Assembly (NCBI GenBank): GCA_963759805.1
Contig: CAVXAT010000004.1
Coordinates: 1-64,000, forward strand
Length of the DNA stretch: 64,000 nucleotides
Reading direction: 5' to 3'
Source: an uncultured bacterium
GTDB taxonomy: Bacteria > Babelota > Babeliae > Babelales > RVW-14
The notes under the pieces are model-generated. The model worked only from the letters and a program-made list of their open reading frames with translations. It had not been told where the DNA came from and did not search any database. Below, in pieces: positions 1 through 19,006 of this stretch. How positions within the stretch are numbered: position 1 is the stretch's first letter; each line of letters opens with the position of its first letter. A program made the translations under genes and the position numbers.

Positions 1-814
1 AGAATACCAAACCACCGTGCTGGAATATTGTAATCGGCTCTCCTCCGTTCAAATTCCAAAGTTTTGCAGTACCGTCAGCTGAAGCTGTTAAGATGAACTG
101 GCCATCCGGGGAAAAGACTGCTGATTCTACAAAAGAATAGTGCTGGAATATTGTAATCGGCTCTCCTCCGTTCAAATTCCAAAGTTTTGCAGTATGGTCA
201 GCTGAAGCTGTTAAGATGAACTGGCCATCCGGGGAAAAGACTGCTGATTCTACCAAAGAATCGTGCTGGAATGTTGCAATCGGCTCTCCTCCGTTCAAAT
301 CCCAAAGTTTTGCAGTATCGTCACCTGAAGCAGTTAAGATGAACTGGCCATCCGGGGAAAAGACTGCTGATTCTACCCCAAAATCGTGATGGAATGTTGC
401 AATCGGCCCTCTGTTCAAATTCCAAAGATTTGCAGTGTTATATGAAGCAGTTAAAATGAACTGGCCATCGGGGGAAAAGACTGCTGAGGATACTGCATTA
501 TTATGTTGGGATATTTGTTTTATTTTTGGATAACCATCAACTTTAGGAAAGAAAAGAGTAGAATTTTTTGTTATTAAGGCTTTAGAAATTTCGTATGCAA
601 TTTCTTGGGGTAGGGCTTTTTCACCTCTGGCTAATTCAATAAGTTGTTCTGGGGTGTAATTTAAAATATGTTTACTGTAATCATAGAGACATAGCTCATA
701 TAATGTTGGAAAATTACGCACAATTGTTTCTTTTGGCGCCATTGCACAAAAAACATATGATGGTACCTGAAAAAACAGCGTCGCCAAAGGTATTAAAAAT
801 AAACTCTTTTTCAT
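1..814 (-). CDS. Secreted WD40-repeat protein, paralog 3 (3' end runs off the window)
   Basis: Not in the ORF track; translated by hand from ATG at 814 (AGGAGGT RBS upstream): MKKSLFLIPLATLFFQ...HILNYTPEQLIELARGEKALPQEIAY...DGYPKIKQ, then 123-bp repeats HxxxVxSAVFSPDGQFILTASxDxTAKLWNLNGGEPI. Confidence 0.9.
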   Translation of the reverse strand, partial: MKKSLFLIPLATLFFQVPSYVFCAMAPKETIVRNFPTLYELCLYDYSKHILNYTPEQLIELARGEKALPQEIAYEISKALITKNSTLFFPKVDGYPKIKQISQHNNAVSSAVFSPDGQFILTASYNTANLWNLNRGPIATFHHDFGVESAVFSPDGQFILTASGDDTAKLWDLNGGEPIATFQHDSLVESAVFSPDGQFILTASADHTAKLWNLNGGEPITIFQHYSFVESAVFSPDGQFILTASADGTAKLWNLNGGEPITIFQHGGLVF

Positions 815-1036
815 GATATAACCTCCTAAATATAAACTCACATTTGCAATAAAAAACTTTATTTAATTCTTATTATTTTCAATTTTAACAATAAAAAACA
901 GGTTGTGCAACCGCTCCCTCAAAAAATCAAAAAAATAGATTAAAAATAGATTAAGATTTCAGGCTGAAACAGATTGGGTGATATTTGAATTGGGTACGTT
1001 TCTATGTGAAACTTTAACGCTAAATTTTTTGTTGTT

Positions 1037-1141
1037 CTAAGCAGCCAACTTCAACACCAGATCTTTAAACACCTGACCACCTGGGCGAGAACAGAACCTG
1101 GTTGCCAGGCTGCATTTTTTGGTCATAAGATGTTTTTTCAT
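1037..1141 (-). pseudogene. Relic 5' end of another WD40 paralog (MKKHLM..., 34 codons)
   Basis: Leader and start gaaagactaacATGAAAAAACATCTTATG closely match gaaggactaacATGAAAAAACATATAATG of the 1176..2657 gene; sequence then diverges and stops. Confidence 0.55.
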
Positions 1142-1175
1142 GTTAGTCTTTCACGTTCGTAATGCATCTTTTCTT

Positions 1176-2657
1176 TTAAGCATTCAAAAACCATTCAAAA
1201 AAATTTTGAATATGTCTTTGTTCCTCAGGTATATCTGCAGGTCCATCGATTTGATTAAGAACTTCGTAAATAATGGCCGAGACCTTCGGATTTGACTCAA
1301 CAAAGCCTTTGTGCTTCAAAATAAGTAAAATTGTAGCAAGCTCTTGCAAAGAAAGTTGGCCGTTGCGATATTTTGCGGAATTCCAAAGCGGATGAATTTC
1401 CCATAGTATTGCTGATTTACCTGAAACAGTTAAAACATTCAAGCTATTCGGGGAAAAGACTGCTGAGTTTACCTCTCTATCATGATGGAATGTTGCAATA
1501 AGCTCTCCGTTTAAATTCCAAAGTTTTGCAGTGTTGTCAATTGAAGCAGTTAAGATAGATTGGCCATCCGGGGAAAAGACTGCTGAATATATAACACCAC
1601 TGTGGTTGAATGTTGCAATCGGCTCTCCTTTCAAATTCCAAAGTTTTGCATTATAGTCAGCTGAAGCAGTTAAGATGGATTGGCCATCCGGAGAAAATAC
1701 TGCCGAGTTTACTGGATAATCGTGATGGAATGTTACAATCGGCTCTCCGTTCAAATTCCAAAGTTTTGCAGTACCGTCATTTGCAGTACCGTCATATGAA
1801 GCAGTTAAAGGGTTGTCAACCGGAACAGTTAAGATGAATTGGCCATCAGGGGAAAAGACTGCTGATTTTACCAAATCACCATGCTGGAATATTGTAATCA
1901 GTTTTCCGTTCAAATTCCAAAGTTTTGCGGTATGTTCAAACGAAACAGTTAAGACGGATTGGCCATCCGGGGAAAAGACTGCTGATTTTACCAAATCACC
2001 GTGCTGGAATATTGTAATCAGTTTTCCGTTCAAATTCCAAAGTTTTGCGGTATGTTCAAACGAAACAGTTAAGATGAATAGACCATCGGGGGAAAAGACT
2101 GCTGGTTTTACGCAACCACCGTGCTGGAATGTTGCAATAGGCTCTCCTCCGTCGTTCAAAGTCCAAAGTTTTGCAGTGTAGTCACCTGAAGCAGTTAAGA
2201 TGGATTGGCCATCAGGGGAAAAGACTGCTAAGTATACCCAATCACCGTGATGGAATGTTGCAATCGGCTTTCCTCCGTTCAAATTCCAAAGTTTTGCAGT
2301 ATGGTCACCTGAAGCAGTTAAAATGGATTGGCCATCAGGGGAAAAGACTGCTGACTGTACCCAATCATCATGTTGGAATACTTGTTTTATTCTTGGATAA
2401 CCATCAATCTCAGGAAAAAAAAGAGTAGGTTTATCTGATATTAAAGTTTTAGAAATTACATAGGCAATATCTTGCGGTAGCGCCCTTTCTCCTCTGACTA
2501 ATTCAAGAAGTTGTTCTGGCTGGTAATTTAAAATACGCTCACGGACATTTTTTAAAGATATTTCGGCCAGGGGCATGACTCCATTTACGTTTTTTAAAAA
2601 AGTACTCAGGAGTAGGGCAATCACAAATAAATTTTTGAGCATTATATGTTTTTTCAT
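1176..2657 (-). CDS. Secreted WD40-repeat protein (about 8 repeats), paralog 2
   Basis: Signal-like N-terminus; repeats SAVFSPDGQSILTASxDxTAKLWNLNG; C-terminal NGQLSLQELATILLILKHK shared with paralog 1. Confidence 0.93.
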   Translation of the reverse strand: MKKHIMLKNLFVIALLLSTFLKNVNGVMPLAEISLKNVRERILNYQPEQLLELVRGERALPQDIAYVISKTLISDKPTLFFPEIDGYPRIKQVFQHDDWVQSAVFSPDGQSILTASGDHTAKLWNLNGGKPIATFHHGDWVYLAVFSPDGQSILTASGDYTAKLWTLNDGGEPIATFQHGGCVKPAVFSPDGLFILTVSFEHTAKLWNLNGKLITIFQHGDLVKSAVFSPDGQSVLTVSFEHTAKLWNLNGKLITIFQHGDLVKSAVFSPDGQFILTVPVDNPLTASYDGTANDGTAKLWNLNGEPIVTFHHDYPVNSAVFSPDGQSILTASADYNAKLWNLKGEPIATFNHSGVIYSAVFSPDGQSILTASIDNTAKLWNLNGELIATFHHDREVNSAVFSPNSLNVLTVSGKSAILWEIHPLWNSAKYRNGQLSLQELATILLILKHKGFVESNPKVSAIIYEVLNQIDGPADIPEEQRHIQNFFEWFLNA

Positions 2658-2672
2658 GTTAGTCCTTCGTGT

Positions 2673-3869
2673 TTAAGAATTTAAAAAACCTTCAAAAAAG
2701 TTTTTGATATGCCTTTGTTCGTCAGGCACATTCCCATCGATTTGATTAAGAATGTCATGAATAATGGCCTGGATATTCGGATCTGAATTAACAAATTCTT
2801 TGTGTTTCAAAATAAGTAAAATTGTAGCAAGCTCTTGCAAAGAAAGTTGACCGTTGCGGTATTTTGTGGAATTCCAAAGTGTACCAACTCCCCAAAGTAT
2901 TACCTCCCTTAAGTCTACATCACTGTGTTTATATGAAGTAGCTACGATGAATTGACCATCTGTGGAAAAAACTGCTACGTCTACATCACTATCGTGTTGT
3001 AATGTTGTAATCAGTTCTCCATTCAAATTCCAAAGTTTAACCTCAAAATCTGAAATAGTTAAGATGCGTTTGCCATTCGGGGAAAAGATTGCTGATTTTA
3101 CCGAATAACCGTGATGGAATGTTACAATCGGTTCTCTATTCAAATTATTCAAATTCCAAAGGCATGCAGTGCCATCCCCTGAAGCTGTTAAGATGAATTG
3201 GCTATTATGAGAAAATACTGCTGAGTTTATAGCATCGCCGTGGGTGAATGTTGCAATAAGCTGCCCATTCAAATTCCAAAGTTTTGCAGTGTTGTCATCT
3301 GAGGCTGTTAAAATGGATAGGCTATCTGGGGAAAAGATTGCTGAGTTTACCCGCGCATCATGTTGTAACGTAATAGTTTGCCCTTTCCAATGCTTAAGTT
3401 CCGCAGTATCGCCATTATATATAGTAATTAATACGAATTCGCCATCTGGGGTTGCTGAATTTATCTGCTGATGGAATGTTGTAATCAGTTTTCCTTTCAA
3501 AGTCCAAAGTTCTGCGGTGGGGGCCAGGAACTCCATGAAGATGAATTGGTCATTCGGGGCCGCTGAATGTAGCCACCGATTATCTTGGAACTTCGCTATG
3601 ATTTTGGGATAACCATCGATGTTGGGAAAGAAAATATCAGGGTTATCTGTTATCAAGGCTCTAGAAAGTTTATATTCACAGTCTAGTGAGTAGACCGCAT
3701 CTTCACTTGCTAATTGTAAAAGCGCTTCCGGAGAATAATCGAGAATATGTTCATAGACATTCTTTAAAGATATTTCAGCCAATGGTATGGCTCCACTTAC
3801 GTTTTTGAAAAATGTGATTATAAGTAGAGCAATAACAAAGATGTTTTTGAAAATAATATGTCTTTTCAT
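2673..3869 (-). CDS. Secreted WD40-repeat protein, paralog 1 (more degenerate repeats)
   Basis: Same N- and C-terminal domains as 1176..2657; SAIFSPD..ILTASDDNTAKLWNLNG repeats. Confidence 0.92.
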   Translation of the reverse strand: MKRHIIFKNIFVIALLIITFFKNVSGAIPLAEISLKNVYEHILDYSPEALLQLASEDAVYSLDCEYKLSRALITDNPDIFFPNIDGYPKIIAKFQDNRWLHSAAPNDQFIFMEFLAPTAELWTLKGKLITTFHQQINSATPDGEFVLITIYNGDTAELKHWKGQTITLQHDARVNSAIFSPDSLSILTASDDNTAKLWNLNGQLIATFTHGDAINSAVFSHNSQFILTASGDGTACLWNLNNLNREPIVTFHHGYSVKSAIFSPNGKRILTISDFEVKLWNLNGELITTLQHDSDVDVAVFSTDGQFIVATSYKHSDVDLREVILWGVGTLWNSTKYRNGQLSLQELATILLILKHKEFVNSDPNIQAIIHDILNQIDGNVPDEQRHIKNFFEGFLNS

Positions 3870-3912: not shown

Positions 3913-5379
3913 TTATTTTAAAAGCTTTGTAAATATATCATTCAAGAGCTTTGGATTGGCTTTGCCTTGTGTTTCTTTCATGGCCTGACCAACAAAGAAT
4001 CCGAAAAGTCTTAGATTGCCGGCTTTGTATTTTGCAACTTCATCAGGATTGCTATCTACTATCTTCTTGGCGATTGTTTCCAGTAAATCAGTAGAATCAA
4101 CTTGCCCTAAGTTCTTTTCTTTTATTATCTCTTTGGCTGTTTTTCCGGATGTTATCATTTCGCTGAATATATCTTGAGCGACTTTGCTGTTGATATTGCC
4201 GGCTTCGATTTCATTAACAAGCCCGGCCAAATTTTCAGGTGTCATTTTGGTGTTATTTATGTCGACTTTATGTTCGTTCAGATAAGCCAGTAAATTACGC
4301 AAAATCCAGTTACAGGCTGATTTTGGATTTTTACAAGTTGATTTGCATGTTTGTTCAAAAAAGTTGGCGAATGGAATGGATTCGATCAAGATTAACGCGT
4401 CGTCATAGGGTAGGCCATAGGTTTTTTGGAATCTTAGCAGTTTTTCGCCTGGAAGTTCGGGAATAGTTTTTTTGATAGCATCGATCCAGTTTTGATCGAT
4501 TTCGATAACCGGTAGATCCGGTTCAGGAAAATATCGGTAATCATCGGCGCCTTCTTTGCGGCGCATCATAACGGTCTTTTGATTTTTGCGGTCCCAAAGT
4601 CTTGTCTCCGGATAAATCTTTTCACCGGATTCTAGTGCTTCAATTTGGCGTTTTGTTTCATACTCAATTGCCTGAGTAATAAATTTAAATGAGTTGATGT
4701 TTTTCAGCTCAATTCTTTGCCCAAGCTGTTCTGAAGTTTTTTTCTTTACCGATATATTAACGTCCGCTCTGAATGAACCTTCTTCCATGTTGGCATCACT
4801 TATCCCAAGATACTGGACAATGGTGTGCAGACGCATCAGATAGGCTTTGGCTTCGTATGCGCTCTGCATATCAGGTTGGCTTACAATTTCAACAAGTGGA
4901 GTGCCAGCACGGTTCAAATCAACAAGGCTGAAGCCCAGTGATGTATGAATATTTTTACCGGCGTCCTCTTCCATATGAATTCTGATTAATCTAATTTTTT
5001 TCTCAGAGCCGTCTTCAAGTTCGATTGAAATATAGCCGTCTTGGCAGATTGGATTTGCATCCTGAGTTGTCTGATAGTTTTTGGGCAAATCGGGATAATA
5101 ATAATGCTTGCGCGCAAAGTCTGTCAAGGGAGTGATTTTGCAATTTGTTGCAAGTCCAAGCATTATTGCATTGTCCACAACCTTTTTGTTCATTACCGGC
5201 AGTACCCCCGGATGGCCGGTGCAGATTGGACATATGTTTTTGTTTGGTTCTTGCCCAAACTCATTTTGGCAGCTACAAAAGACTTTTGATTTTGTTTTTA
5301 ACTGTAAATGAACTTCAATTCCGATTGTGGCCTGATAATCTGCAGAATTAACCACAGCATTTTTTATCTGCTCTGACAT
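3913..5379 (-). CDS. gatB: Asp-tRNA(Asn)/Glu-tRNA(Gln) amidotransferase subunit B
   Basis: IGIEVHLQL, RKHYYYPDLPKNYQ, HMEEDAGK, DLNRAGTPLVEIV, YRYFPEPDLP. Confidence 0.98.
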   Translation of the reverse strand: MSEQIKNAVVNSADYQATIGIEVHLQLKTKSKVFCSCQNEFGQEPNKNICPICTGHPGVLPVMNKKVVDNAIMLGLATNCKITPLTDFARKHYYYPDLPKNYQTTQDANPICQDGYISIELEDGSEKKIRLIRIHMEEDAGKNIHTSLGFSLVDLNRAGTPLVEIVSQPDMQSAYEAKAYLMRLHTIVQYLGISDANMEEGSFRADVNISVKKKTSEQLGQRIELKNINSFKFITQAIEYETKRQIEALESGEKIYPETRLWDRKNQKTVMMRRKEGADDYRYFPEPDLPVIEIDQNWIDAIKKTIPELPGEKLLRFQKTYGLPYDDALILIESIPFANFFEQTCKSTCKNPKSACNWILRNLLAYLNEHKVDINNTKMTPENLAGLVNEIEAGNINSKVAQDIFSEMITSGKTAKEIIKEKNLGQVDSTDLLETIAKKIVDSNPDEVAKYKAGNLRLFGFFVGQAMKETQGKANPKLLNDIFTKLLK

Positions 5380-7916: not shown

Positions 7917-8939
7917 CCTGAGTTCGACGTTATAAAAAGTTAAGCATGGGCTGGTAAATTAAGCATAAACTTGCTTCGAAGTGATGGCTTTTTTGGCAAG
8001 AAACAATATGCAACAAGTCCGGCAATAAGATTGACAACAAAGTTTGTTGGGCTGCGATGTCGAGAGTGCTCTATTTGACAGGTTTCTTTGAGTATACAGT
8101 TGACTGATTCTATGATTCCACGCTTACTAAGGCCAAGTCTATCTTCCATTTCCATGATTTGAATTTTCATTTTTTTCTTCAATTTTGTAATGAGTTTTAT
8201 GCCTTTTGCAAAAAGCGCGTCAAAGAGCTTCTTTGAAATATATCCTCGATCTCCCCAAAGCTTTCCGAAGCACTTTCGGGCAAGGTTGGTTACTACAGAT
8301 GCGTTGTTGTCGGCAACATTACCAGGTGTGAGCATGAAAGATACTATCTCTCCGCACTCATTGATAATCAGATGAAGTTTAAATCCATAAAACCATCCAG
8401 TAGACGTTTTTCCGCGTGCAGCAATTCCAGAAAACACCTTGTTTCTGTTGATTCGCAAATTATGACATACCTGAAGCTTTGTTGAATCGATAAATCCAAA
8501 GCCTGTACATTTGTTTTTACAACACAAATTCATAAAAATTGTTAACGGCACAAGAGCCTGCGGAACCAGCTCTATAAAGCGATTATAGCTGACGATCCCG
8601 TCGAATGCGCCCTTCAAATCGCCACATTCTTTATAATATTTTTTAAAAGTACGATATCCAGAGTGATGAAAATAAATGAGTATCGTCAGAATGTCACTGA
8701 GAGACATTCTTTTCTGTTCTCTTTTTACCAATGCCGATAAATCTGCAGAAATTGAATGTGCATCTAGATGTGTTTTAAAATCTTTACAAAAATTGTCTAC
8801 GTCATAAAAAATTTGAGTTAAAATCATTTTACTTCCCTTTTTGAAATCCTTTTTTAGATTGGTTTTAACATTCTAAATCTATAGAGGATTTGCTTTAAGG
8901 GAAGTCCTTTTCAAAGAATTTTAATTGTCGAACTCAGGT
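7916..8939 (-). mobile_element. IS982-family insertion sequence
   Basis: 13-bp perfect terminal inverted repeats ACCTGAGTTCGAC (7916-7928 and 8927-8939); 6-bp direct repeat TAACTA (7910-7915 and 8940-8945). Confidence 0.93.
7940..8827 (-). CDS. IS982-family DDE transposase
   Basis: FIDSTKLQVC, GWFYGFKLHL, LWGDRGYISK, KRGIIESV, IEHSRHRS. Confidence 0.95.
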   Translation of the reverse strand: MILTQIFYDVDNFCKDFKTHLDAHSISADLSALVKREQKRMSLSDILTILIYFHHSGYRTFKKYYKECGDLKGAFDGIVSYNRFIELVPQALVPLTIFMNLCCKNKCTGFGFIDSTKLQVCHNLRINRNKVFSGIAARGKTSTGWFYGFKLHLIINECGEIVSFMLTPGNVADNNASVVTNLARKCFGKLWGDRGYISKKLFDALFAKGIKLITKLKKKMKIQIMEMEDRLGLSKRGIIESVNCILKETCQIEHSRHRSPTNFVVNLIAGLVAYCFLPKKPSLRSKFMLNLPAHA

Positions 8940-9053: not shown

Positions 9054-11165
9054 CTATTTATTTCCATGTGGCGCCCAATAACTAGCAGCGGCAATTCCTT
9101 CTTTTTGTGTTTCTTCCAACCCAATCTTTTTAGCGGTAATATTGCTAAGCTTTTTTACTTCGTTTGCTTGTTTTTCAAAGGATGTTTTTAATTTTTCATT
9201 TAAGTCATTTATTTTTTTAGTTAGAGCTTGTTTTTTAGATTCTGTAAGTGTAGAACTTTCGAGTTGTCCTGAATATTTTTTTATGTCGGATTTCAATTTA
9301 CTAAGCGTCTTTGCCATTTTTTTATTTATTTTCTCCTGAGCAGCAATTTGTTTGTTGGTTTCCTTCAATTTAGTGGTTGCTGTTTTTACTGATTGATTTG
9401 CTTCGTTGATGAGATCTTGCGGTTTTTTACCTTCTAATAAAGTGTTTAATTTTTTGGTTGTGCTATCTAATTCAGTCTTTGCTGCTGTGATTTTGCTATT
9501 TGTATCGCTTAGTTCTTGTGTTTTTGTTTTTAATTCGTTTTGTAACTCTTTGTTGACAGGATCTGTTACAAGGCCTTTTTTTAGGGCGTCTATTGCTATC
9601 TGTATGGGTTTGAGCTTTATTTCTCCTGCCCCAATTTTACCTTCTAATGTCACTTCTTTAGTTGTAAGTTCTTGATGTATATCGGTAATTTGTTTAGGGA
9701 GATCTCCAGCTGCTTCAACATTCCCTTTAGCAATCTGTGATTTAGTCATTTCATAAGATTTAGTAAGAGTATCTAATCTTGTGGATCCAAGGGTCTCCAG
9801 TTTTTGGTTTGCATCTCCAAGTTCTACTTGTACCTGGTTTTCATTATTTGTTGCCTTTTTTAATTTTGCGTTTGCTTCAGCAAGTCTTTCTTCAGCAGTT
9901 TTGGCTGTCTCACTCTTTGGATCGAGGGTTGCTAATTCTTTTTTGATTTTTTCATATGCAGCCTTACAGATTTCTTTTTCTTGTGCTGCTTTATTTGATT
10001 TGTTCATTGTTTTAAGAGCTTCGGTTTGCGCTTCTTTAATTTGGCTATCTAGCGTAGTTATTTTGGTCTTTAACGTAGTAGGCGTTTCTTTAGTCTGAGA
10101 TGAAGTTTTCTGTGTTTGGGGTTTTTGCTCTGGTTCTTGGCTTACAACAGTTCTGGCAACAGTTCCATCTGGTTTAGTCTTTGCAGCTCTATCAGGGATA
10201 GCAGGCAAAGGTTTTGAGGGAGGTTCATGCATTTTAGCGGGTTCAGTTTTTGGTTGAGCAACTTCGCTGACAACTTTAGTGCTTTGACCTACGCCAGGTT
10301 CTTCAGGTTTACTTGGGCCTACTCCACGTTCTTCTGATAGACCAATTTCTTCCGGTGTTACTGGTTTTGTTTCAATGGGTTTAATTTGGGAGGTGGATTC
10401 CTCTGGCAATCTTATAAGTTCAGTAGGGAGTTCAACTGGAACTGATGGAACTGATACGTTTGTTGGTTTTGCAACCTCAAAGACAGGCTCTAGTAGTTTA
10501 GCTTCGGATTTGGGGGCTTCGAGAGATTCTCCTGGCGCTTGTGGTGTTCCAGCCGGAGCTGCAGTATTTTTTTGAGTTGCTTTAGTTGTAACGTCTTGTA
10601 CAAATTCGCTAAATGCCTTTTCATGTACTGATGGTTCCGGAGTTGATAACGAGACCCCTTTATCTATAGGTGTAAACTTTGGGGCTTCTGTCGCAGGTCC
10701 TGAGGGTATTTTTGGTCCATGTTCACTCCCTGGTGCTTGTGGCGGTGCAACCAATTTTGGAACTTCTTTTCCTATTCCAATTGGTAGAAACTTAGCCGTT
10801 TTCTCTTTTGTTATTTCTTGAGCTGCAGCCTTTTCTCGAACATCGAGAGGATGTGGAATGTTTTGCGTAGCTTCAATGTATGGTTGAGCTTGTTTCTTTT
10901 CGCTCTCTAATGGTGCTTCATATCCTATCGTAGGTTTTGGGGTAATAGATTCCACCGGCCTCTTTACTGTAGCTTCAAATCCTTTGGGAACGGTCAATGC
11001 GGCTGGTTTTTCCATTGGTTTTGCGGATGTTTCTGGTCTCGAGGTCTGTTTGGGAGATTCGTAGATATGCTCGGGCATTCTTTCTCTTGGAAATTCAGCC
11101 CACACACGGGAGCCACTTAATAATGTCATAATCAAAATGGCTCTAATAAAAAATATATTTTTCAT
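9054..11165 (-). CDS. Secreted P/E/K/T-rich protein with a C-terminal coiled coil
   Basis: Likely start MKNIFFIRAIL at 11165 (GAGG RBS); signal peptide, disordered middle, heptad-rich C-half. Confidence 0.75.
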   Translation of the reverse strand: MKNIFFIRAILIMTLLSGSRVWAEFPRERMPEHIYESPKQTSRPETSAKPMEKPAALTVPKGFEATVKRPVESITPKPTIGYEAPLESEKKQAQPYIEATQNIPHPLDVREKAAAQEITKEKTAKFLPIGIGKEVPKLVAPPQAPGSEHGPKIPSGPATEAPKFTPIDKGVSLSTPEPSVHEKAFSEFVQDVTTKATQKNTAAPAGTPQAPGESLEAPKSEAKLLEPVFEVAKPTNVSVPSVPVELPTELIRLPEESTSQIKPIETKPVTPEEIGLSEERGVGPSKPEEPGVGQSTKVVSEVAQPKTEPAKMHEPPSKPLPAIPDRAAKTKPDGTVARTVVSQEPEQKPQTQKTSSQTKETPTTLKTKITTLDSQIKEAQTEALKTMNKSNKAAQEKEICKAAYEKIKKELATLDPKSETAKTAEERLAEANAKLKKATNNENQVQVELGDANQKLETLGSTRLDTLTKSYEMTKSQIAKGNVEAAGDLPKQITDIHQELTTKEVTLEGKIGAGEIKLKPIQIAIDALKKGLVTDPVNKELQNELKTKTQELSDTNSKITAAKTELDSTTKKLNTLLEGKKPQDLINEANQSVKTATTKLKETNKQIAAQEKINKKMAKTLSKLKSDIKKYSGQLESSTLTESKKQALTKKINDLNEKLKTSFEKQANEVKKLSNITAKKIGLEETQKEGIAAASYWAPHGNK

Positions 11166-11186
11166 AACGGTTGGTCCTCTCTTTTT

Positions 11187-11222
11187 TAACACAGATATTT
11201 GGACATCCAAATATCTGTGTTA
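11187..11222. promoter_or_regulatory. Perfect 17-bp inverted repeat between two co-oriented genes
   Basis: taacacagatatttgga-ca-tccaaatatctgtgtta. Confidence 0.6.
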
Positions 11223-11233
11223 TTTACCATTTA

Positions 11234-14056
11234 TTACTTTGCTTTTATTCCAAGAAACTCGGGTGAAAAGCCTAAAGCATCACTAAACGACTCGTATTCG
11301 CTTGCTATAATGCTATCTACATATTTACTGTTTTTCCTCAAATCTGCTAATCTCTTTTTAATTAATTCTGCAGGAGTTTGTGTTGATTTGTCATCTTGTG
11401 CCACTGGTAGATACACGGCAAACATGCATCTAAATTTGATTTGATCTGCAACAAGAGACTTGGATGCATCATTTATATCTGTCATTGCTTTTTCATATGC
11501 ATCTTCTAGTTGAGCATTACTTGGATCAGCTTTTAATTTGAGTATGGTGTTAGTAAGATTTGTTTGTGCTTGAATTAATTTTAAGCTTGATTTGTTACAG
11601 ATTTTAGAAAATTCTTGATCAGGATTAATTGCTGAATCTTTACCATCTGCCATTCGTAGGGTTACACTTCCTTTTGCTGCACTTAAAATCTGATTTGCTT
11701 GCAGTGTTTCGCTTAAACATCTGAAAAATATAGATTGTAGTGCATACTTAGTTGCGTTTTTACCAAGCAGAACGTTGGAATATAAATAACCTTTATCACC
11801 TTTAATTTTTGCGTAATATATTTTAGAAAAATTTTTAAACAAAATTTTTAAGACATCGTTCAATGACACATTCTTGCTGTAAATTTTTGTTGATATTTCA
11901 AACTCCGGTTTTTTTGTTAGAACAGTGATCTCTTCTTTTCCGTCTCTAACATCTTTAACCTTTTTCAAAAGAGTTTCAATTTTTGCTACCGTTGTTTTGT
12001 CAATTTTTGCTTTTACCATGCTTTTTTTCACATCCGTTAACATTGAAATGAGTTGGTCTAAATGTAGCCATAAATCTCTGCCTGTTTTAGGCGGGCATTC
12101 AGACAGATGTTTTTGCAGGGAATAAATTAAAATGTGTTTTTCCGTATGCGTCATATCTTTCTTAATAGCCGGAGTAATTTTTTCTTTTATGAACTTTGTT
12201 ATCTTGAGATAATCTTTGAGCTTTTGCGCCTCGCCTATTTGTTTAATTAACACGGTGTCTTCCGGATCGCTTACATTGTAAACCAGGTCTCCGTAAATTT
12301 TAAGTGATATGGCGCCAATAATTTGTTGGAATTTCTCAGGCATTTTTGATATGAGTATGTCAGGAGTTGGGTCTTGAGTTGGTGTTAAAATTAATCGGGA
12401 GTAAAGTTTGGTTGCTTCATCAATTATAAAATTAATTTTTTCGACATCTTTTTTAGAGTTATCTCTTAATGTTGTGTTAACGAGCAAGATAATTTTTATC
12501 ATGAAAATAAAGCCGGCAGTCGGTTGTATCAAAGTAGCAAATAATTCCCTTGCAGGTCCGTCTGGTAAAAGATTTTTAATTTCATCTGAATTTAATGCAA
12601 TTCCGTTAATCCCTTGAGGAATCATTGTGACTAAAAATGGGGTAAATGGTGAGCCCAGTTCTCCCGCATCTCCTTTTACAAAGTCATATTCAAGGCGGAT
12701 TGTTTCGGTTGAATCTCCAATTTTGGCTTCTCCTTCGATTACAAATTTTTGATCGGAGTAATTGGATTCTTCCAACGCTTTTGCAAATTTTTCTTCAATA
12801 TCTGTGTAAAAGCTTGCAACATTTGCAACCACTTGTTGATGGTCAGGGTCGTCTTGTGGAGCGGGAGGGTAAGGAGAAGGTATAACCACACCTGAATCAG
12901 GTTGAATGTTCGGTATTGGGGATGGAATTGGCGTTGGGGATGGCGTTGGAGAAGGCACTATGTCCGTTTGAGCGGCCGTTTGCCCAGAATCTTTATTTAA
13001 AGTTGCGCCAAGTATTGCACCCAATATTCCGCCCAAAGCCAAGAGTCCTGCGCCGATTGCGCCTCCCGCAATCAATAGTTTTTTATTTTTTTCTAAAAAA
13101 CTTTGAGATTGTTCTTTTGGGGTTTCTGTAGATTTAAGCGCTTTGGTTAATTCGTTTAAACTTTCGACGACATTGTGTCCTGCGGCTAAAACTGGTTCAA
13201 TTGTGCCTGTTGGTGTTTTTTCTTTTGGTACTTGTACTGTGATTGGGGGTTTTGCGGCTTCCAGTTGTTGGGGCTCTAACAGTTTGGATACTGCTTCGTT
13301 AACTTTTAATGCTTTGTCTCTTATTCGTGTTTCCTCGGCAGGCAATTCAGCGGGTTTTAAGCTAGATGCCTGTTTGACTTTTTGTTCTTCTATGATTACA
13401 GGGATTTGTTTTTGCTCTTCAACGGTGGTTGTTGTGGAAGTTCTTCTTGCGGCTTCGGTTTCTAATTGCTCTTTATTTGCGGTTTTGAGCATGTCAGTTG
13501 CTTGCTTAAATGCTTCTCCAACATTTACGGCGCTTTCTCTTATTGGCGTTAGCTCTGCAGGAAGTTTAGTTGCTTCGCCAAGAGGCTTCCCCTCTTTTAC
13601 TTCTAACGGTTTAAATGAGGGTTTTACAGCAGCTACTGCTGGTGCATGAGAGGTTGTTGTAGCAGGTTGAGCAGTGCCAGGTTGGGTTTCAGGTTTTGGC
13701 GTTTCAGATTTTGGAGCGGTCGAAGTTGGTTGTGCTTTAGCTTGTTCAGCTAATCTTTCTTGTACCCTTTCTTCGGCGGGCGTTTTTGCTTCTGCGACTG
13801 GGCGTTCTTCTTGTTGATATTCTGGAGTGCGTGCCTTTTCGGCTAGATGTTGTTCTGGTGCTGCAATTTGATGAACAGGATGAACTTCGAGGGGCTTGAG
13901 GGCTTCATGCTCGACAGCACGTATGGGTTCAATTGGCCGTTCCATTCGCTCCGGTCGCGGTTCTCGTAATAGGTGCGGTTCTGCTCCCCAGATATTCGAA
14001 TATCCTAAAAATATAGCCACAGTCAAAATGGCCCTAATTAGAAATTTATTTTTCAT
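11234..14056 (-). CDS. Large exported protein with a central Gly/Ala-rich hydrophobic segment and a Pro-rich linker
   Basis: Signal MKNKFLIRAILTVAIFLG; LLIAGGAIGAGLLALGGILGAILGATL; PSPTPSPTPIPSPIP. Confidence 0.8.
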   Translation of the reverse strand: MKNKFLIRAILTVAIFLGYSNIWGAEPHLLREPRPERMERPIEPIRAVEHEALKPLEVHPVHQIAAPEQHLAEKARTPEYQQEERPVAEAKTPAEERVQERLAEQAKAQPTSTAPKSETPKPETQPGTAQPATTTSHAPAVAAVKPSFKPLEVKEGKPLGEATKLPAELTPIRESAVNVGEAFKQATDMLKTANKEQLETEAARRTSTTTTVEEQKQIPVIIEEQKVKQASSLKPAELPAEETRIRDKALKVNEAVSKLLEPQQLEAAKPPITVQVPKEKTPTGTIEPVLAAGHNVVESLNELTKALKSTETPKEQSQSFLEKNKKLLIAGGAIGAGLLALGGILGAILGATLNKDSGQTAAQTDIVPSPTPSPTPIPSPIPNIQPDSGVVIPSPYPPAPQDDPDHQQVVANVASFYTDIEEKFAKALEESNYSDQKFVIEGEAKIGDSTETIRLEYDFVKGDAGELGSPFTPFLVTMIPQGINGIALNSDEIKNLLPDGPARELFATLIQPTAGFIFMIKIILLVNTTLRDNSKKDVEKINFIIDEATKLYSRLILTPTQDPTPDILISKMPEKFQQIIGAISLKIYGDLVYNVSDPEDTVLIKQIGEAQKLKDYLKITKFIKEKITPAIKKDMTHTEKHILIYSLQKHLSECPPKTGRDLWLHLDQLISMLTDVKKSMVKAKIDKTTVAKIETLLKKVKDVRDGKEEITVLTKKPEFEISTKIYSKNVSLNDVLKILFKNFSKIYYAKIKGDKGYLYSNVLLGKNATKYALQSIFFRCLSETLQANQILSAAKGSVTLRMADGKDSAINPDQEFSKICNKSSLKLIQAQTNLTNTILKLKADPSNAQLEDAYEKAMTDINDASKSLVADQIKFRCMFAVYLPVAQDDKSTQTPAELIKKRLADLRKNSKYVDSIIASEYESFSDALGFSPEFLGIKAK

Positions 14057-16934: not shown

Positions 16935-17265
16935 ATGGTTGTTTTTACTATTATTTTTTGGGGATGGTCTATTTTGCGTAACCGGCAAAAGTAATGGGCT
17001 TGCCAAAAAAATTCTAAGAGACCCGTTTAATTTGCCATTAAAATCGTTGGCAAAATCTTCAACCAAAGAGCGCAGAGAGAACCGGATTAATCTTTTGGGA
17101 ATAGTCCACAGCGCTGTAGAATATGGGGCGGTACTTGAGCTTGATGGCAAAGTGGAGACAGTATTTTTAAATGATGATTTTTACGGATTCAAAATTTTAG
17201 CAATTAAAACTACCAGTGTTGAACTAAGCAGAGGGAAAATTAAGAAAAAGCTTTTTATTGAATGA
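16915..17265 (+). CDS. PilP/GspC-like protein
   Basis: RDPF motif, LLGIV...GAVL...GFKILAI...VEL; sits between pilO-like and pilQ. Confidence 0.6.
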   Translation: MYRLQVKWLFLLLFFGDGLFCVTGKSNGLAKKILRDPFNLPLKSLAKSSTKERRENRINLLGIVHSAVEYGAVLELDGKVETVFLNDDFYGFKILAIKTTSVELSRGKIKKKLFIE

Positions 17266-19006
17266 TCTTTATTTTGAAGGGGGAGTTGTGTTTTATCTCA
17301 TTTTTTTACTGCAATTAATTTTGAGTACAAGTTTGATTACAAATTTTTTATTTGCCGATAGTGTTGTTTTGCCAACCGAAAAATATGATACATTGCCCTT
17401 GCCTCCGATGATACATGATTTAATTAAACAAGAGTACAGTAAGCAGAAAGAGGATACTCTGAATAAAATTGAAGAAATTGTTAAAAAAGAGTTAAAAGAA
17501 GAAGAGGGCAATGAAAAACACACAGTAAAAAAAAGAAAAAAGAGTTCTGGAAATAAAACAAAAACAGGCGAAGGGGGTATTTCCAGAGCATCATCGAGTA
17601 ACGGTTTTTGGGATGCATTGAAAAATCCACAACTTGAAAGAGTATTGCGGACTTTGATTGATGATCAGTATAAAGATTTGGATAAATACGATAAAACTGT
17701 CTCTTTAAAGCTGAAGAATGTAGATATAAAAAAGGCTTTTGAGTTAATAAGTAAAACATCCGGAATTCAAATTTTCGTTGACAGTGATGTGCATGGTACG
17801 ATTGAAAATATCGATTTGAAAAATGTTCGAATCTCGTCAGCATTACGGTTACTGACAACGTCAAACAACCCTGTTCTTGCGGCATTGTGGGAAAATGAAG
17901 CAGTTCATATTGCAAAACTTTCAACAGCTGTTGAGTTACTCAAAACAAAAGCCATGGACCTCCTTGATAGTGATTATAAAAATGTATGCATAACAATTTA
18001 TCATGCGAAGTGGAATGAGGAGCTAAAGAAGCGCTTAACTGCACTCTGGAAAGGTATTGTCGGAGACGGAAATGACAAAAATTGTGCATATTTGGTTTTT
18101 GATGATGAAAGTAAAAAAATCCTGTGTCATGCTCGTCAAGCTCAAATCAATTCGTTCAAAGAGTTTATTAGCAAGATAGATATCGAAATTCCTCAGGTTA
18201 AAATTGATGCTCGAATTGTAATTGCCAGCAAAGACTTTGAGGAGGCTTTGGGGTTTGATTGGTCAGGATATTATGATAAACGTGGCATGGTAACACATTC
18301 TGAATTTGCTAGTTTTGGTGCGAAGAAAAATGATTCGGATGATGATGCGTTTAAAACGGCAGTTAATTGGGCTATGAATTTTGTTCCAGGTTTATCAATG
18401 AAATGTCTCCCAATTAGGCTGCCATTTATCTGGGGTAACAAAAATTTTGATAGCAACAGAGTAAATTTGATACTGCAGGCGGCAGAGAACAAAAATCAAA
18501 TTAGAACAATACTAAAACCGTCTTTACTTGTTAACAACGACGAATTGGCTGAGATTTTGGTTGGACAGCAGATGCCGCATGAGACAAAAATTGAAGAAAC
18601 AGTTGAGGGCCAGCCTTCAAATGTTACCACAACTCAGTATAAAGATATTGGAATGAACGTAAAAATTAAATCAATTATAGCGCCTGATAGAGATTCGGTG
18701 TTTATGGATGTTTTTGTAGAGTACTCATATATCGCCAGACCAAGAATCGAATTTGATACCTTGCCCGGTCCCGGGAGTAAAAATTTTAATTACATAATTG
18801 AAACATCGCGATCTAAAAATCGTGTTCTTCTAAAAAGTGGGCAAACTACAATGATTGGTGGGTTGATTGTAAATGTGGAAGAAAGGATACAGACAGGGGT
18901 TCCGTTTTTACAAGATATTCCCGTTCTGGGCTTTCTGTTTAAAGCTCGACGAAAGACAGTGATTGAAAAACAGCTTCTGATCTTTATTACGCCAACTATT
19001 TCTTGA
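17258..19006 (+). CDS. pilQ: Secretin (PilQ/GspD family)
   Basis: STN-like VSLKLKNVDIK; QVKIDARIV; LKSGQTTMIGGL; GVPFLQDIPVLGFLF; LLIFITP. Confidence 0.92.
   Translation: MNDLYFEGGVVFYLIFLLQLILSTSLITNFLFADSVVLPTEKYDTLPLPPMIHDLIKQEYSKQKEDTLNKIEEIVKKELKEEEGNEKHTVKKRKKSSGNKTKTGEGGISRASSSNGFWDALKNPQLERVLRTLIDDQYKDLDKYDKTVSLKLKNVDIKKAFELISKTSGIQIFVDSDVHGTIENIDLKNVRISSALRLLTTSNNPVLAALWENEAVHIAKLSTAVELLKTKAMDLLDSDYKNVCITIYHAKWNEELKKRLTALWKGIVGDGNDKNCAYLVFDDESKKILCHARQAQINSFKEFISKIDIEIPQVKIDARIVIASKDFEEALGFDWSGYYDKRGMVTHSEFASFGAKKNDSDDDAFKTAVNWAMNFVPGLSMKCLPIRLPFIWGNKNFDSNRVNLILQAAENKNQIRTILKPSLLVNNDELAEILVGQQMPHETKIEETVEGQPSNVTTTQYKDIGMNVKIKSIIAPDRDSVFMDVFVEYSYIARPRIEFDTLPGPGSKNFNYIIETSRSKNRVLLKSGQTTMIGGLIVNVEERIQTGVPFLQDIPVLGFLFKARRKTVIEKQLLIFITPTIS

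Follow-up and report, generated by a model that had tools for sequence, protein, structure and literature searches.

What does a Babeliales bacterium do with a tandem array of WD40 paralogs whose repeats are alike at most codons and hypervariable at a few? In the genome analyzed here (G000), such an array of at least five to seven genes sits between gatB and eno. The reading that we favor, with a probability of roughly 0.4, is that the array may encode a recombining set of Cullin-RING substrate-receptor mimics; a motif and its context suggest this, and profile searches do not support it.

The window, a stretch of 64,000 nucleotides, starts at the first base of contig C4, which ends inside the array; four further family copies are found on contig C19, and no sequence overlap joins the two contigs. 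Three paralogs, all with Pfam WD40 matches, lie on the minus strand of the window next to gatB (3913..5379, minus strand), a conserved flank; in relatives, at most one family gene stands between it and eno. Gene C (2673..3869, 398 aa), the first gene after gatB, has about six diverged WD40 units between a signal peptide plus N-terminal helical domain and a C-terminal helical domain (2676..2888); four of the units were found by the anchor motif (C1–C4, 2898..3362) and are older and less homogenised. In gene B (1176..2657, 493 aa), eight units (B1–B8, 1401..2372) are flanked by N- and C-terminal helical domains, the latter (1179..1400) without a Pfam or PDB profile match. Gene A is truncated by the contig end, and its 5′ part (1..814, ATG at 814–812) contains units A1–A4 complete and the beginning of A5 (1..505). 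The spacer between B and A (815..1175) recurs almost unchanged on C19 (425–779) between genes D and E; it matched no Rfam family, and its promoter signal was not in excess of shuffled sequences. Given this nearly identical spacer, D and E may be second-strain alleles of B and A. An earlier note on this DNA had described three paralogs with a common signal peptide and N-terminal domain, two of them also with a common C-terminal domain. The three genes and both domains are borne out, the family is larger by the four copies on C19, and the common signal peptide is limited to B and C, that of A being unrelated in sequence to theirs.

Pfam WD40 matches above the cut-off, together with the predicted fold, place the proteins among WD40 propellers. 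The gene B protein was predicted to form an eight-blade propeller, with fold matches such as ODA16 and Tako8; searches returned propellers only, as the blades filled the match lists and the helical part was barely probed. In all full-length members, the N-terminal and C-terminal helical parts are both conserved. No NACHT or NB-ARC NTPase was present among the best 25 Pfam matches listed per protein, and there is no space for one in the N-terminal (95 residues) or C-terminal (74 residues) part, as the earlier note had held. An N-terminal cell-death effector domain is likewise absent, its place being taken by the signal peptide and a 70-residue helical segment without a Pfam match.

The start of this helical segment resembles a BC-box followed by a Cul2 box, for which the published consensus is (S,T,P)LXXX(C,S,A)XXX-hydrophobic, with the Cul2 box 8–23 residues downstream (PMC3355856). 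The BC-box-like motif of B (2544..2573, minus strand, residues 29–38) lies at the start of a predicted helix, and the Cul2-box-like motif (2454..2480, minus strand, residues 60–68) follows 21 residues past it. Gene A has both motifs (677..706, residues 37–46, and 587..613, residues 68–76, minus strand); gene C has the first (3756..3785, minus strand, residues 29–38) and is missing the proline at the Cul2-box position. The resemblance was first spotted by eye, post hoc. Among 13 family rows, reaching down to about 30% identity, the BC-box consensus is found in eight (10 when Ala is counted as hydrophobic; P0003 has Arg at the last position), position 2 is Leu and position 6 Cys or Ser in all 13, and position 1 is mostly Ser, Thr, or Pro. 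A Cul2-like box occurs at the 21-residue spacing in seven rows; the other six, among them the only orthologs in G001 and G003, have no proline there. The BC-box pattern by itself is found in 81 of the 1371 ORFs of the genome and so is weak; the motif pair at residues 19–71 is found in eight, four of which are these paralogs. With such a start, the N-terminal domain suggests a putative mimic of an E3 adaptor and not an NLR-like sensor.

Profile methods gave no such indication. The N-terminal domain matched no SOCS_box, VHL, Elongin_A, or F-box family in Pfam at E values up to 10 and no adaptor box among PDB profiles; the Atlas search was blank or noise, and hhalign to a bacterial SOCS box and an Elongin_A-like segment stayed at noise level. 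The second proline of a Cul5 box (LP-hydrophobic-P) was seen in none of the 13 rows, and G000 had no SOCS_box match. Matches to Elongin-B (E = 0.48) and to LRRC58 (E = 0.82, aligned to the wrong helix) were dismissed as chance, and the C-terminal domain has another BC-box-like word, which was set aside because distant members have a plain hydrophobic helix instead. The monomer model folds the first helix with high confidence (pLDDT 94–95), and the helix may therefore pack against the C-terminal helices instead of being free.

It is quite possible, if also tentative, that the proteins act independently of ubiquitin, as exported binders or decoys directed at the host, in which the helices would form one structural cap and each propeller would bind and block a host protein. 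The selection, recombination, and export evidence fits such decoys equally, and the joint conservation of both helical parts and the lack of an adaptor-box profile match favor them. Left unexplained are the restriction of position 6 to Cys or Ser and the bias at position 1 across the 13 rows, as well as the rarity of the motif pair in the genome.

Export, which the earlier note had proposed, was predicted from charge and hydropathy only. Genes B (2580..2657) and C (3792..3869, both minus strand) encode putative Sec-type signal peptides, and A has a signal-peptide-like N terminus of a different sequence type (743..814, minus strand), the first 80 bases of which are identical to those of pseudogene E. 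These N termini, with a basic n-region and a hydrophobic core, resemble OmpA and differ from three cytoplasmic controls. A Sec signal alone does not establish delivery to the host cytosol.

The genomic setting is one of host dependence, and the RNase G cluster carries a Babeliales label. G000 has 12 TLC and 51 ankyrin profile matches and three secretins, and it also encodes proteins combining a signal peptide with an F-box. Another genome of the phylum, G184, combines a signal peptide, a SOCS box, and ankyrins above the Pfam cut-off; the SOCS box passes that cut-off in only one of 261 phylum genomes. Babela is described as an exploiter of host ubiquitin (PMC4378268).

Signal peptides show passage through the inner membrane only, and periplasmic or surface proteins, either adhesins involved in host choice or receptors whose variability reflects phages, predators, or competitors, would be compatible with them. 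We consider this unlikely: no lipobox, transmembrane segment, or anchor domain was seen, the best 19-residue hydropathy window being the signal peptide itself, and signal-peptide WD40 proteins of the phylum are interpreted as secreted host-interaction factors (PMC4378268, PMC6561590).

The WD40 units measured 117–129 bp, close to the 117–126 bp given in the earlier note, plus B5 at 159 bp; this lengthened unit contains a 15-bp tandem duplication (1765..1795), a low-confidence loop in the model. Because whole-unit DNA identity among 12 full units is just 68–93% (82–93% within A, 74–93% within B, 75–89% for A versus B, and 68–82% for pairs with C), the earlier description of the repeats as nearly identical is restricted here to the scaffold codons, at about 92%. 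Over 23 scaffold codons, DNA identity was 0.93 within genes and 0.92 between genes A, B, F, and G, so the scaffold is as alike between genes as within them, and the repeats are indeed homogenised across several genes. It reaches 99–100% in A2–A4 and falls to 0.74–0.91 in C1–C2, gene C being more diverged than A and B. Each unit has six hypervariable codons: His+1, His+2, His+3, His+5, Asp-1, and Asp+1. All words that the earlier note listed as following His or T(A/V)S are present, every one from A or B. For units of A, B, and F, amino-acid identity was 0.86–1.0 in the scaffold and 0.19–0.33 at the six sites. In the predicted propeller these sites fall in the d-a and b-c loops, on one face as had been expected, with the helical domain attached to the opposite face.

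Young repeats whose exposed loops are under relaxed constraint, or an assembly that mixes strains, could in principle produce variable words without positive selection, and a contig break inside the array, the possible allelism of D/E with B/A, the pseudogene state of D and E, and the two blades of gene G (2 to 8 across the family) would suit such an origin. Against this, mean diversity at codon positions 1 and 2 of the six sites (0.57, 12 columns) is three times that at scaffold four-fold synonymous sites (0.18, 13 columns), a gap reached by none of 600 neutral simulations with conversion. All four letters occur at the first two bases of Asp-1 and His+2, and the third base is T in 19 of the 20 units; all 20 six-site words differ, and their reading frames are open. 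The independently deposited protein P0003 repeats units A1–A3 exactly and suggests that the number and order of units differ from cell to cell. Comparison of site models M1a and M2a, run in our own implementation and inflated by recombination, gave 2dL = 53.9 with omega2 = 6.3 on 16% of sites (20 units, all-site tree), and the signal was present separately in window genes A and B (2dL = 22.4) and in F and G of C19 (2dL = 18.6). An omega2 of 35 on a scaffold-only tree was discarded because such a poor tree inflates it. The site-specific diversifying selection proposed earlier is thus upheld, and an origin without selection is largely refuted; we regard it as very improbable. Least credible of all is targeted mutagenesis by a diversity-generating retroelement (DGR), for although adenine mutagenesis of AAT would give codons of the NNT type, to which several of the variable ones belong, five A-majority scaffold four-fold sites show almost no variation (three at 0, two at 0.11–0.21), a 4.8-kb contig carries the assembly's sole reverse transcriptase match, which resembles by eye a eukaryotic non-LTR retrotransposon enzyme, and no DGR was found in the assembly (89% complete).

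Exchange between genes has left several traces. The 5′ end of gene A is 100% E-type for 80 bases and 97–100% F/G-type thereafter, a mosaic; exact tracts of 121–172 bases are common to different genes, four gametes were seen at five of 10 scaffold site pairs, and an identical His-side word occurs with differing Asp-side words. In the same-genus relative G002, gatB and eno are adjacent with no family gene between them, and G003 has one diverged family gene at the locus. The array is expanded relative to its congeners, and its genes are mosaic. An N-terminal profile detected the family in three of 261 phylum genomes (five at a looser threshold, the two extras marginal); two related loci were found in genome contigs, and none of 588 pattern matches in JGI metagenome contigs was confirmed.

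For the Cullin-RING reading these observations suggest the following course. The repeats would exchange sequence through unequal crossing-over and gene conversion, and selection, plausibly a host arms race, would drive the six top-face codons apart; the recombination may be of the ordinary kind rather than a regulated or within-clone diversifier. The proteins would likely be exported into a eukaryotic host, probably by Sec and type II secretion; there the motif resembling a BC-box and Cul2 box would likely bring in Elongin BC and a cullin, and each propeller would select a different host protein for ubiquitination. That the whole amounts to an antibody-like library of exported E3-ligase adaptors with an Elongin BC/Cul2 box, its binding face reshuffled by repeat exchange and selected at the sites used by fungal self/non-self receptors, hence to natural programmable degraders of host proteins, is possible though less likely than not, and we offer it as a conjecture.

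The closest parallel in repeat evolution is the HNWD NLR family of Podospora anserina (het-d, het-e, het-r), in which WD40 repeats undergo concerted evolution, repeat number varies, and short-read assemblies are broken, all as here (PMC12222747). The six sites have exactly the spacing of HNWD selected sites 10, 11, 12, 14, 30, and 32, six of the seven in HET-E; the seventh (39) looks constant in this array by inspection. HNWD genes show larger differences between paralogues (PMC12222747), whereas the present repeats are equally alike between and within genes. Unlike HNWD, the array is bacterial and tandem, with a signal peptide and without a NACHT NTPase or HET cell-death domain. The bacterial HET-E equivalent proposed in the earlier note therefore stands as to concerted evolution, six-site selection, and the missing NTPase, and gives way where an adaptor-like motif points away from an NLR-like sensor.

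Nor is the variable-site pattern unique: all 21 unrelated highly repetitive WD40 proteins used as a control had it, and it is general to such proteins. The accessible text of Hu et al., 2017 (PMC5587647) describes Highly-Repetitive prokaryotic WD40 proteins whose internal identity is high and whose hotspot positions are diverse, as here, half of its 305 proteins being bacterial; it reads the identity as recent duplication and, in that text, reports no per-site positive selection, paralog exchange, or exported arrays. The present proteins belong to this class with scaffold and six-site identity as the measure, in place of the paper's 0.7 whole-repeat rule. In Parachlamydiaceae, amoeba-associated and intracellular, the PEX/NEX families likewise combine tandem expansions of a cullin-adaptor box plus repeats with pseudogenes and birth and death, but they are reported not to be homogenised and to be under purifying selection, with F-box or BTB boxes and repeats other than WD40 (PMC4209131). 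Eukaryotic VHL-box and SOCS-box receptors, including the WD40-containing WSB1, join the BC-box and Cul2-box-like pattern to a repeat domain with the potential to bind substrate (PMC3355856), whereas the present proteins are bacterial, carry the pattern behind a signal peptide, and lack detectable profile-level homology. In the same phylum, Babela and Chromulinavorax have secreted ankyrin and WD40 repertoires that combine a signal peptide with a eukaryote-like repeat; host manipulation, including that of ubiquitin, was inferred for them as it is here, and the accessible text of the three reports mentions neither a BC-box mimic nor a WD40 array that is homogenised and positively selected (PMC4378268, PMC6561590, PMC4776705). 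What is new here is the setting: a predicted-exported, NTPase-less, recently expanded array in a host-dependent bacterium, with a BC-box- and Cul2-box-like motif behind the signal peptide.

The array would show a parasite using HET-E-style repeat evolution, a homogenised frame with selected top-face codons, in conflict with its host; effectors of its phylum, the Dependentiae, are so far without tested function. If the BC-box reading is true, these proteins would be a bacterial mimic of Elongin BC/Cul2 adaptors, of which we found none in the published literature, and a natural modular scaffold in which a code of six positions per blade sets substrate choice. Even if it is false, the array still identifies a rapidly evolving host interface in Dependentiae, and the small genome makes inter-gene repeat exchange tractable to study.

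We located 33 WD40 units in genes A, B and C of the window and in their paralogs D, E, F and G on contig C19, of which 25 have a gap-free 29-codon core (His to Trp), 20 of these in open genes. Units C3, C4, B5, B8, A1, E1, E2 and E5 were left out for indels, and D1, D2, E3, E4 and E6 as pseudogene units. Across the 20 units, six codons (His+1, His+2, His+3, His+5, Asp-1 and Asp+1) each encode 5–10 different residues, whereas the 23 remaining core codons (the scaffold) encode 1–3; pN is 0.51 at the six sites; at the other core codons it is 0.05, against a pS of 0.23. Scaffold DNA is about as similar between units of the same gene (identity 0.93, 40 pairs) as between units of different genes among A, B, F and G (0.92, 113 pairs). 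The earlier note was therefore right that the repeats are alike also between genes and vary at fixed positions; its wording "nearly identical in DNA" suits the scaffold codons but overstates the likeness of whole units, which are 68–93% identical in the window.

Codon site models (our own implementation of M1a and M2a, tests that recombination inflates) favored M2a over M1a with 2dL = 53.9 and omega2 = 6.3 on 16% of sites. Support was best at His+2, His+3, Asp-1 and Asp+1; His+5 reached 0.43, and His+1 was unflagged. Separate fits to A+B+C, A+B and F+G agreed (2dL 18.6–23.8, omega2 5.7–6.5). Because of the effect of recombination, a tree-free test was added: mean diversity is 0.57 at codon positions 1–2 of the six sites versus 0.18 at 13 four-fold scaffold sites, a gap reached in 0 of 600 simulations of neutral change at those codons with gene conversion. 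At Asp-1 and His+2, all four letters occur at both first bases, and 19 of 20 units have T as the third base. We conclude that the six sites are under selection, not relaxed constraint, with variation concentrated there rather than evenly spread. A diversity-generating retroelement is unlikely, since scaffold adenines hardly vary and the sole reverse-transcriptase match in the assembly (89% complete) looks eukaryotic. This match (L011, G000:C20:3298-4818), on a 4.8-kb contig, resembles non-LTR retrotransposons; the contig probably entered the bin from the host or a contaminant, and possibly hints at which host is involved.

Eight four-stranded blades, flanked on both sides by helices, are predicted for B (model pLDDT 85.8, pTM 0.81), with the first strand ahead of the first His; the model matched solved WD40 propellers in a fold search. 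In WD40 topology, the d-a and b-c loops form the top binding face and the a-b and c-d loops lie on the opposite side. Judged by the model's secondary structure, the His-side sites would fall in the d-a loop and the start of strand a, and Asp-1 and Asp+1 in the b-c loop; the constant a-b and c-d loops would lie on the opposite face, as would the points where the helical parts attach. Blade number is lowest in G (2) and highest in B (8), and some copies therefore cannot close a propeller on their own.

The first 80 bases of gene A are identical to E, and from about base 200 to 320 it is 97–100% identical to F and G. All four gametes are present in 5 of 10 scaffold site pairs. A single His-side word is found in six units, each with a different Asp-side pair, and all 20 six-site words differ. 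P0003, a family protein deposited with another assembly and compared at the protein level alone, equals gene A exactly over ~160 residues including units A1–A3 and omits A4; its signal peptide is of the B/F type. This suggests that unit number and 5' ends vary between strains. A tract of 57 bases is identical in A3 and A4, so the missing A4 is possibly an assembly skip in that record.

In the source assembly (1.5 Mb, 21 contigs, 89% complete), whose contig C4 opens with the 64-kb window, the three window genes, all Pfam WD40, lie on the minus strand downstream of gatB: C at 3869-2673, B at 2657-1176 and A from 814 to the contig end. An N-terminal part of 95 residues precedes the repeats in all three, and a C-terminal part of 74 residues follows them in B and C. 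By tblastn of the assembly, four further copies were found at the C19 start (L001:1-4172), ahead of eno: D, a frameshifted 3' piece; E, a pseudogene broken by frameshifts and a stop; F, intact with seven units, some repeated almost exactly (exact tract 129 bases); and G, intact with two units, next to eno. Among same-genus relatives, eno directly adjoins gatB in G002, a single diverged family gene sits between them in G003, and the one copy of G001 is located elsewhere. This gene order indicates that the C4 and C19 starts are both flanks of the same array, which appears to have expanded recently at one locus; comparison of the two contigs found no overlap joining them. A nearly unchanged copy of the B–A spacer separates D from E, with identical stretches of 108, 101 and 70 bases. 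The array may comprise at least seven genes, including a duplicated block, or D and E may be alleles of B and A from a second strain, giving five genes. The N-terminal profile matches 3 of 261 phylum genomes, all of one genus, and 9 representatives among 1.84 billion. A DDE transposase (DDE_Tnp_1_3, window 7940-8827) lies 4 kb from the array, and the end of contig C10 has the same sequence.

The earlier note proposed a bacterial, exported, NTPase-less equivalent of the fungal HET-E/HET-D WD40 repeats. The mode of repeat evolution is indeed alike, and once HET-E site 10 is placed at His+1, a presumed anchor that also draws on the known HET-E unit, HET-D/E/R sites 10, 11, 12, 14, 30 and 32 coincide in offset with the six sites. 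The reported selected sites are 10, 11, 12, 14, 30, 32 and 39 (PMC12222747, Table S2). The array proteins, with neither NTPase nor death domain, are not NLRs. Among 114 unrelated WD40 hits, 59 had at least five detectable cores and 21 a scaffold identity of at least 0.8; six-site identity was at most 0.43 in all 21, and the six-site pattern itself is not very special among highly repetitive WD40 proteins. Diverse hotspot sites in such proteins, half of them bacterial, were already noted in the accessible text of PMC5587647. The setting resembles that of chlamydial F-box/BTB expansions, but those families are described, in the available portion of PMC4209131, as non-homogenised and under purifying selection. 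No array of this kind in Dependentiae was found in the open-licence literature; supplements of Dependentiae or WD40 papers could hold such genes.

The N-terminal domain carries a motif, spotted by eye, resembling the BC-box and Cul2 box (defined in excerpts of PMC3355856). In A, B, C, F and G, a helix fitting the BC-box consensus starts 2–13 residues after the heuristically predicted signal peptide, with a Cul2-box-like pattern 21 residues beyond it. The 13 family rows, which reach down to ~30% identity, all have Leu at position 2 and either Cys or Ser at position 6; 8 of them show the full BC-box (10 with Ala) and 7 the Cul2-like box. The BC-box pattern alone occurs in 81 of 1371 genome ORFs and the pair, at residues 19–71, in 8, 4 of them array paralogs. 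A signal peptide with an F-box above cut-off (L039:943-1716), and one with a weak F-box and ankyrin repeats (L040:1309-2190), support such a layout in the same genome. In G184, another genome, a Babeliales protein (L033:1423-2382) joins a signal peptide and an N-terminal SOCS box that passes the Pfam cut-off to ankyrin repeats; it would be an ASB-like mimic whose box comes first, and SOCS-box domains are reported from Endozoicomonas (PMC9743535, in part). The open-licence literature yielded no bacterial Elongin BC/Cul2 mimic. We give a probability of roughly 0.4 to the array proteins acting as Cullin-RING substrate-receptor mimics predicted to bind Elongin C. Against this, Pfam, PDB profiles and hhalign gave no adaptor-box support for the N-terminal domain, 6 of 13 rows lack the Cul2-box proline, only 1 of 261 phylum genomes has a SOCS box above cut-off, and in the monomer model of G the BC-box-like helix is well folded. 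The proteins could instead be plain binders of host proteins, a reading we hold to be a serious if tentative candidate.

Four more WD40 genes with signal peptides form a second cluster at L023:2174-6151 (G000:C2:146173-150150); by eye, a BC-box-like word starts two genes and an F-box-like LP motif ends one, neither with Pfam support. L024:205-2052 (G000:C2) encodes a signal peptide, a segment that looks by eye like BTB/Skp1 (no Pfam match), and WD40 units that resemble one another within the protein but differ in their His-side words. A WD40-like protein of G038 (L043:1495-2784) has a weak Elongin_A match near its N terminus (E=0.006). An intronless Elongin C gene on a giant-virus bin contig (L026:130-630) is ~71–75% identical to animal proteins; virus or host origin are both possible.

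RNase G, encoded in the window, belongs to a 90% cluster that includes proteins with the label Candidatus Babeliales. Profile matches in the assembly (not gene counts) include 12 TLC nucleotide-transporter, 51 ankyrin and 3 secretin matches, traits described for host-dependent Dependentiae in the accessible parts of PMC4776705, PMC6561590 and PMC4378268. Two large low-complexity proteins (718 and 940 aa; window 9054-14056) have signal peptides, similar starts and no Pfam families. Very large propeller-plus-beta-rich proteins (up to 3884 aa; G000:C1:236498-248152, C4:75441-82124, C8:98140-107803 and C5:107580-114440) form a separate family, in which blades are repeated internally and the low-complexity repeats are long. 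Given the predicted signal peptides of the array proteins, surface or periplasmic roles might be considered, but we regard them as improbable; export is likely by Sec and type II secretion, for which one of the secretins (window 17258-19006) is a candidate channel.

The most likely origin is the insertion of one exported WD40 gene between gatB and eno, followed by its amplification. Unequal crossing-over and conversion would spread scaffold and variable cassettes from unit to unit and from gene to gene, and the same exchange would make and delete blades and leave pseudogenes, while changing host targets would select for new residues at the six top-face codons.
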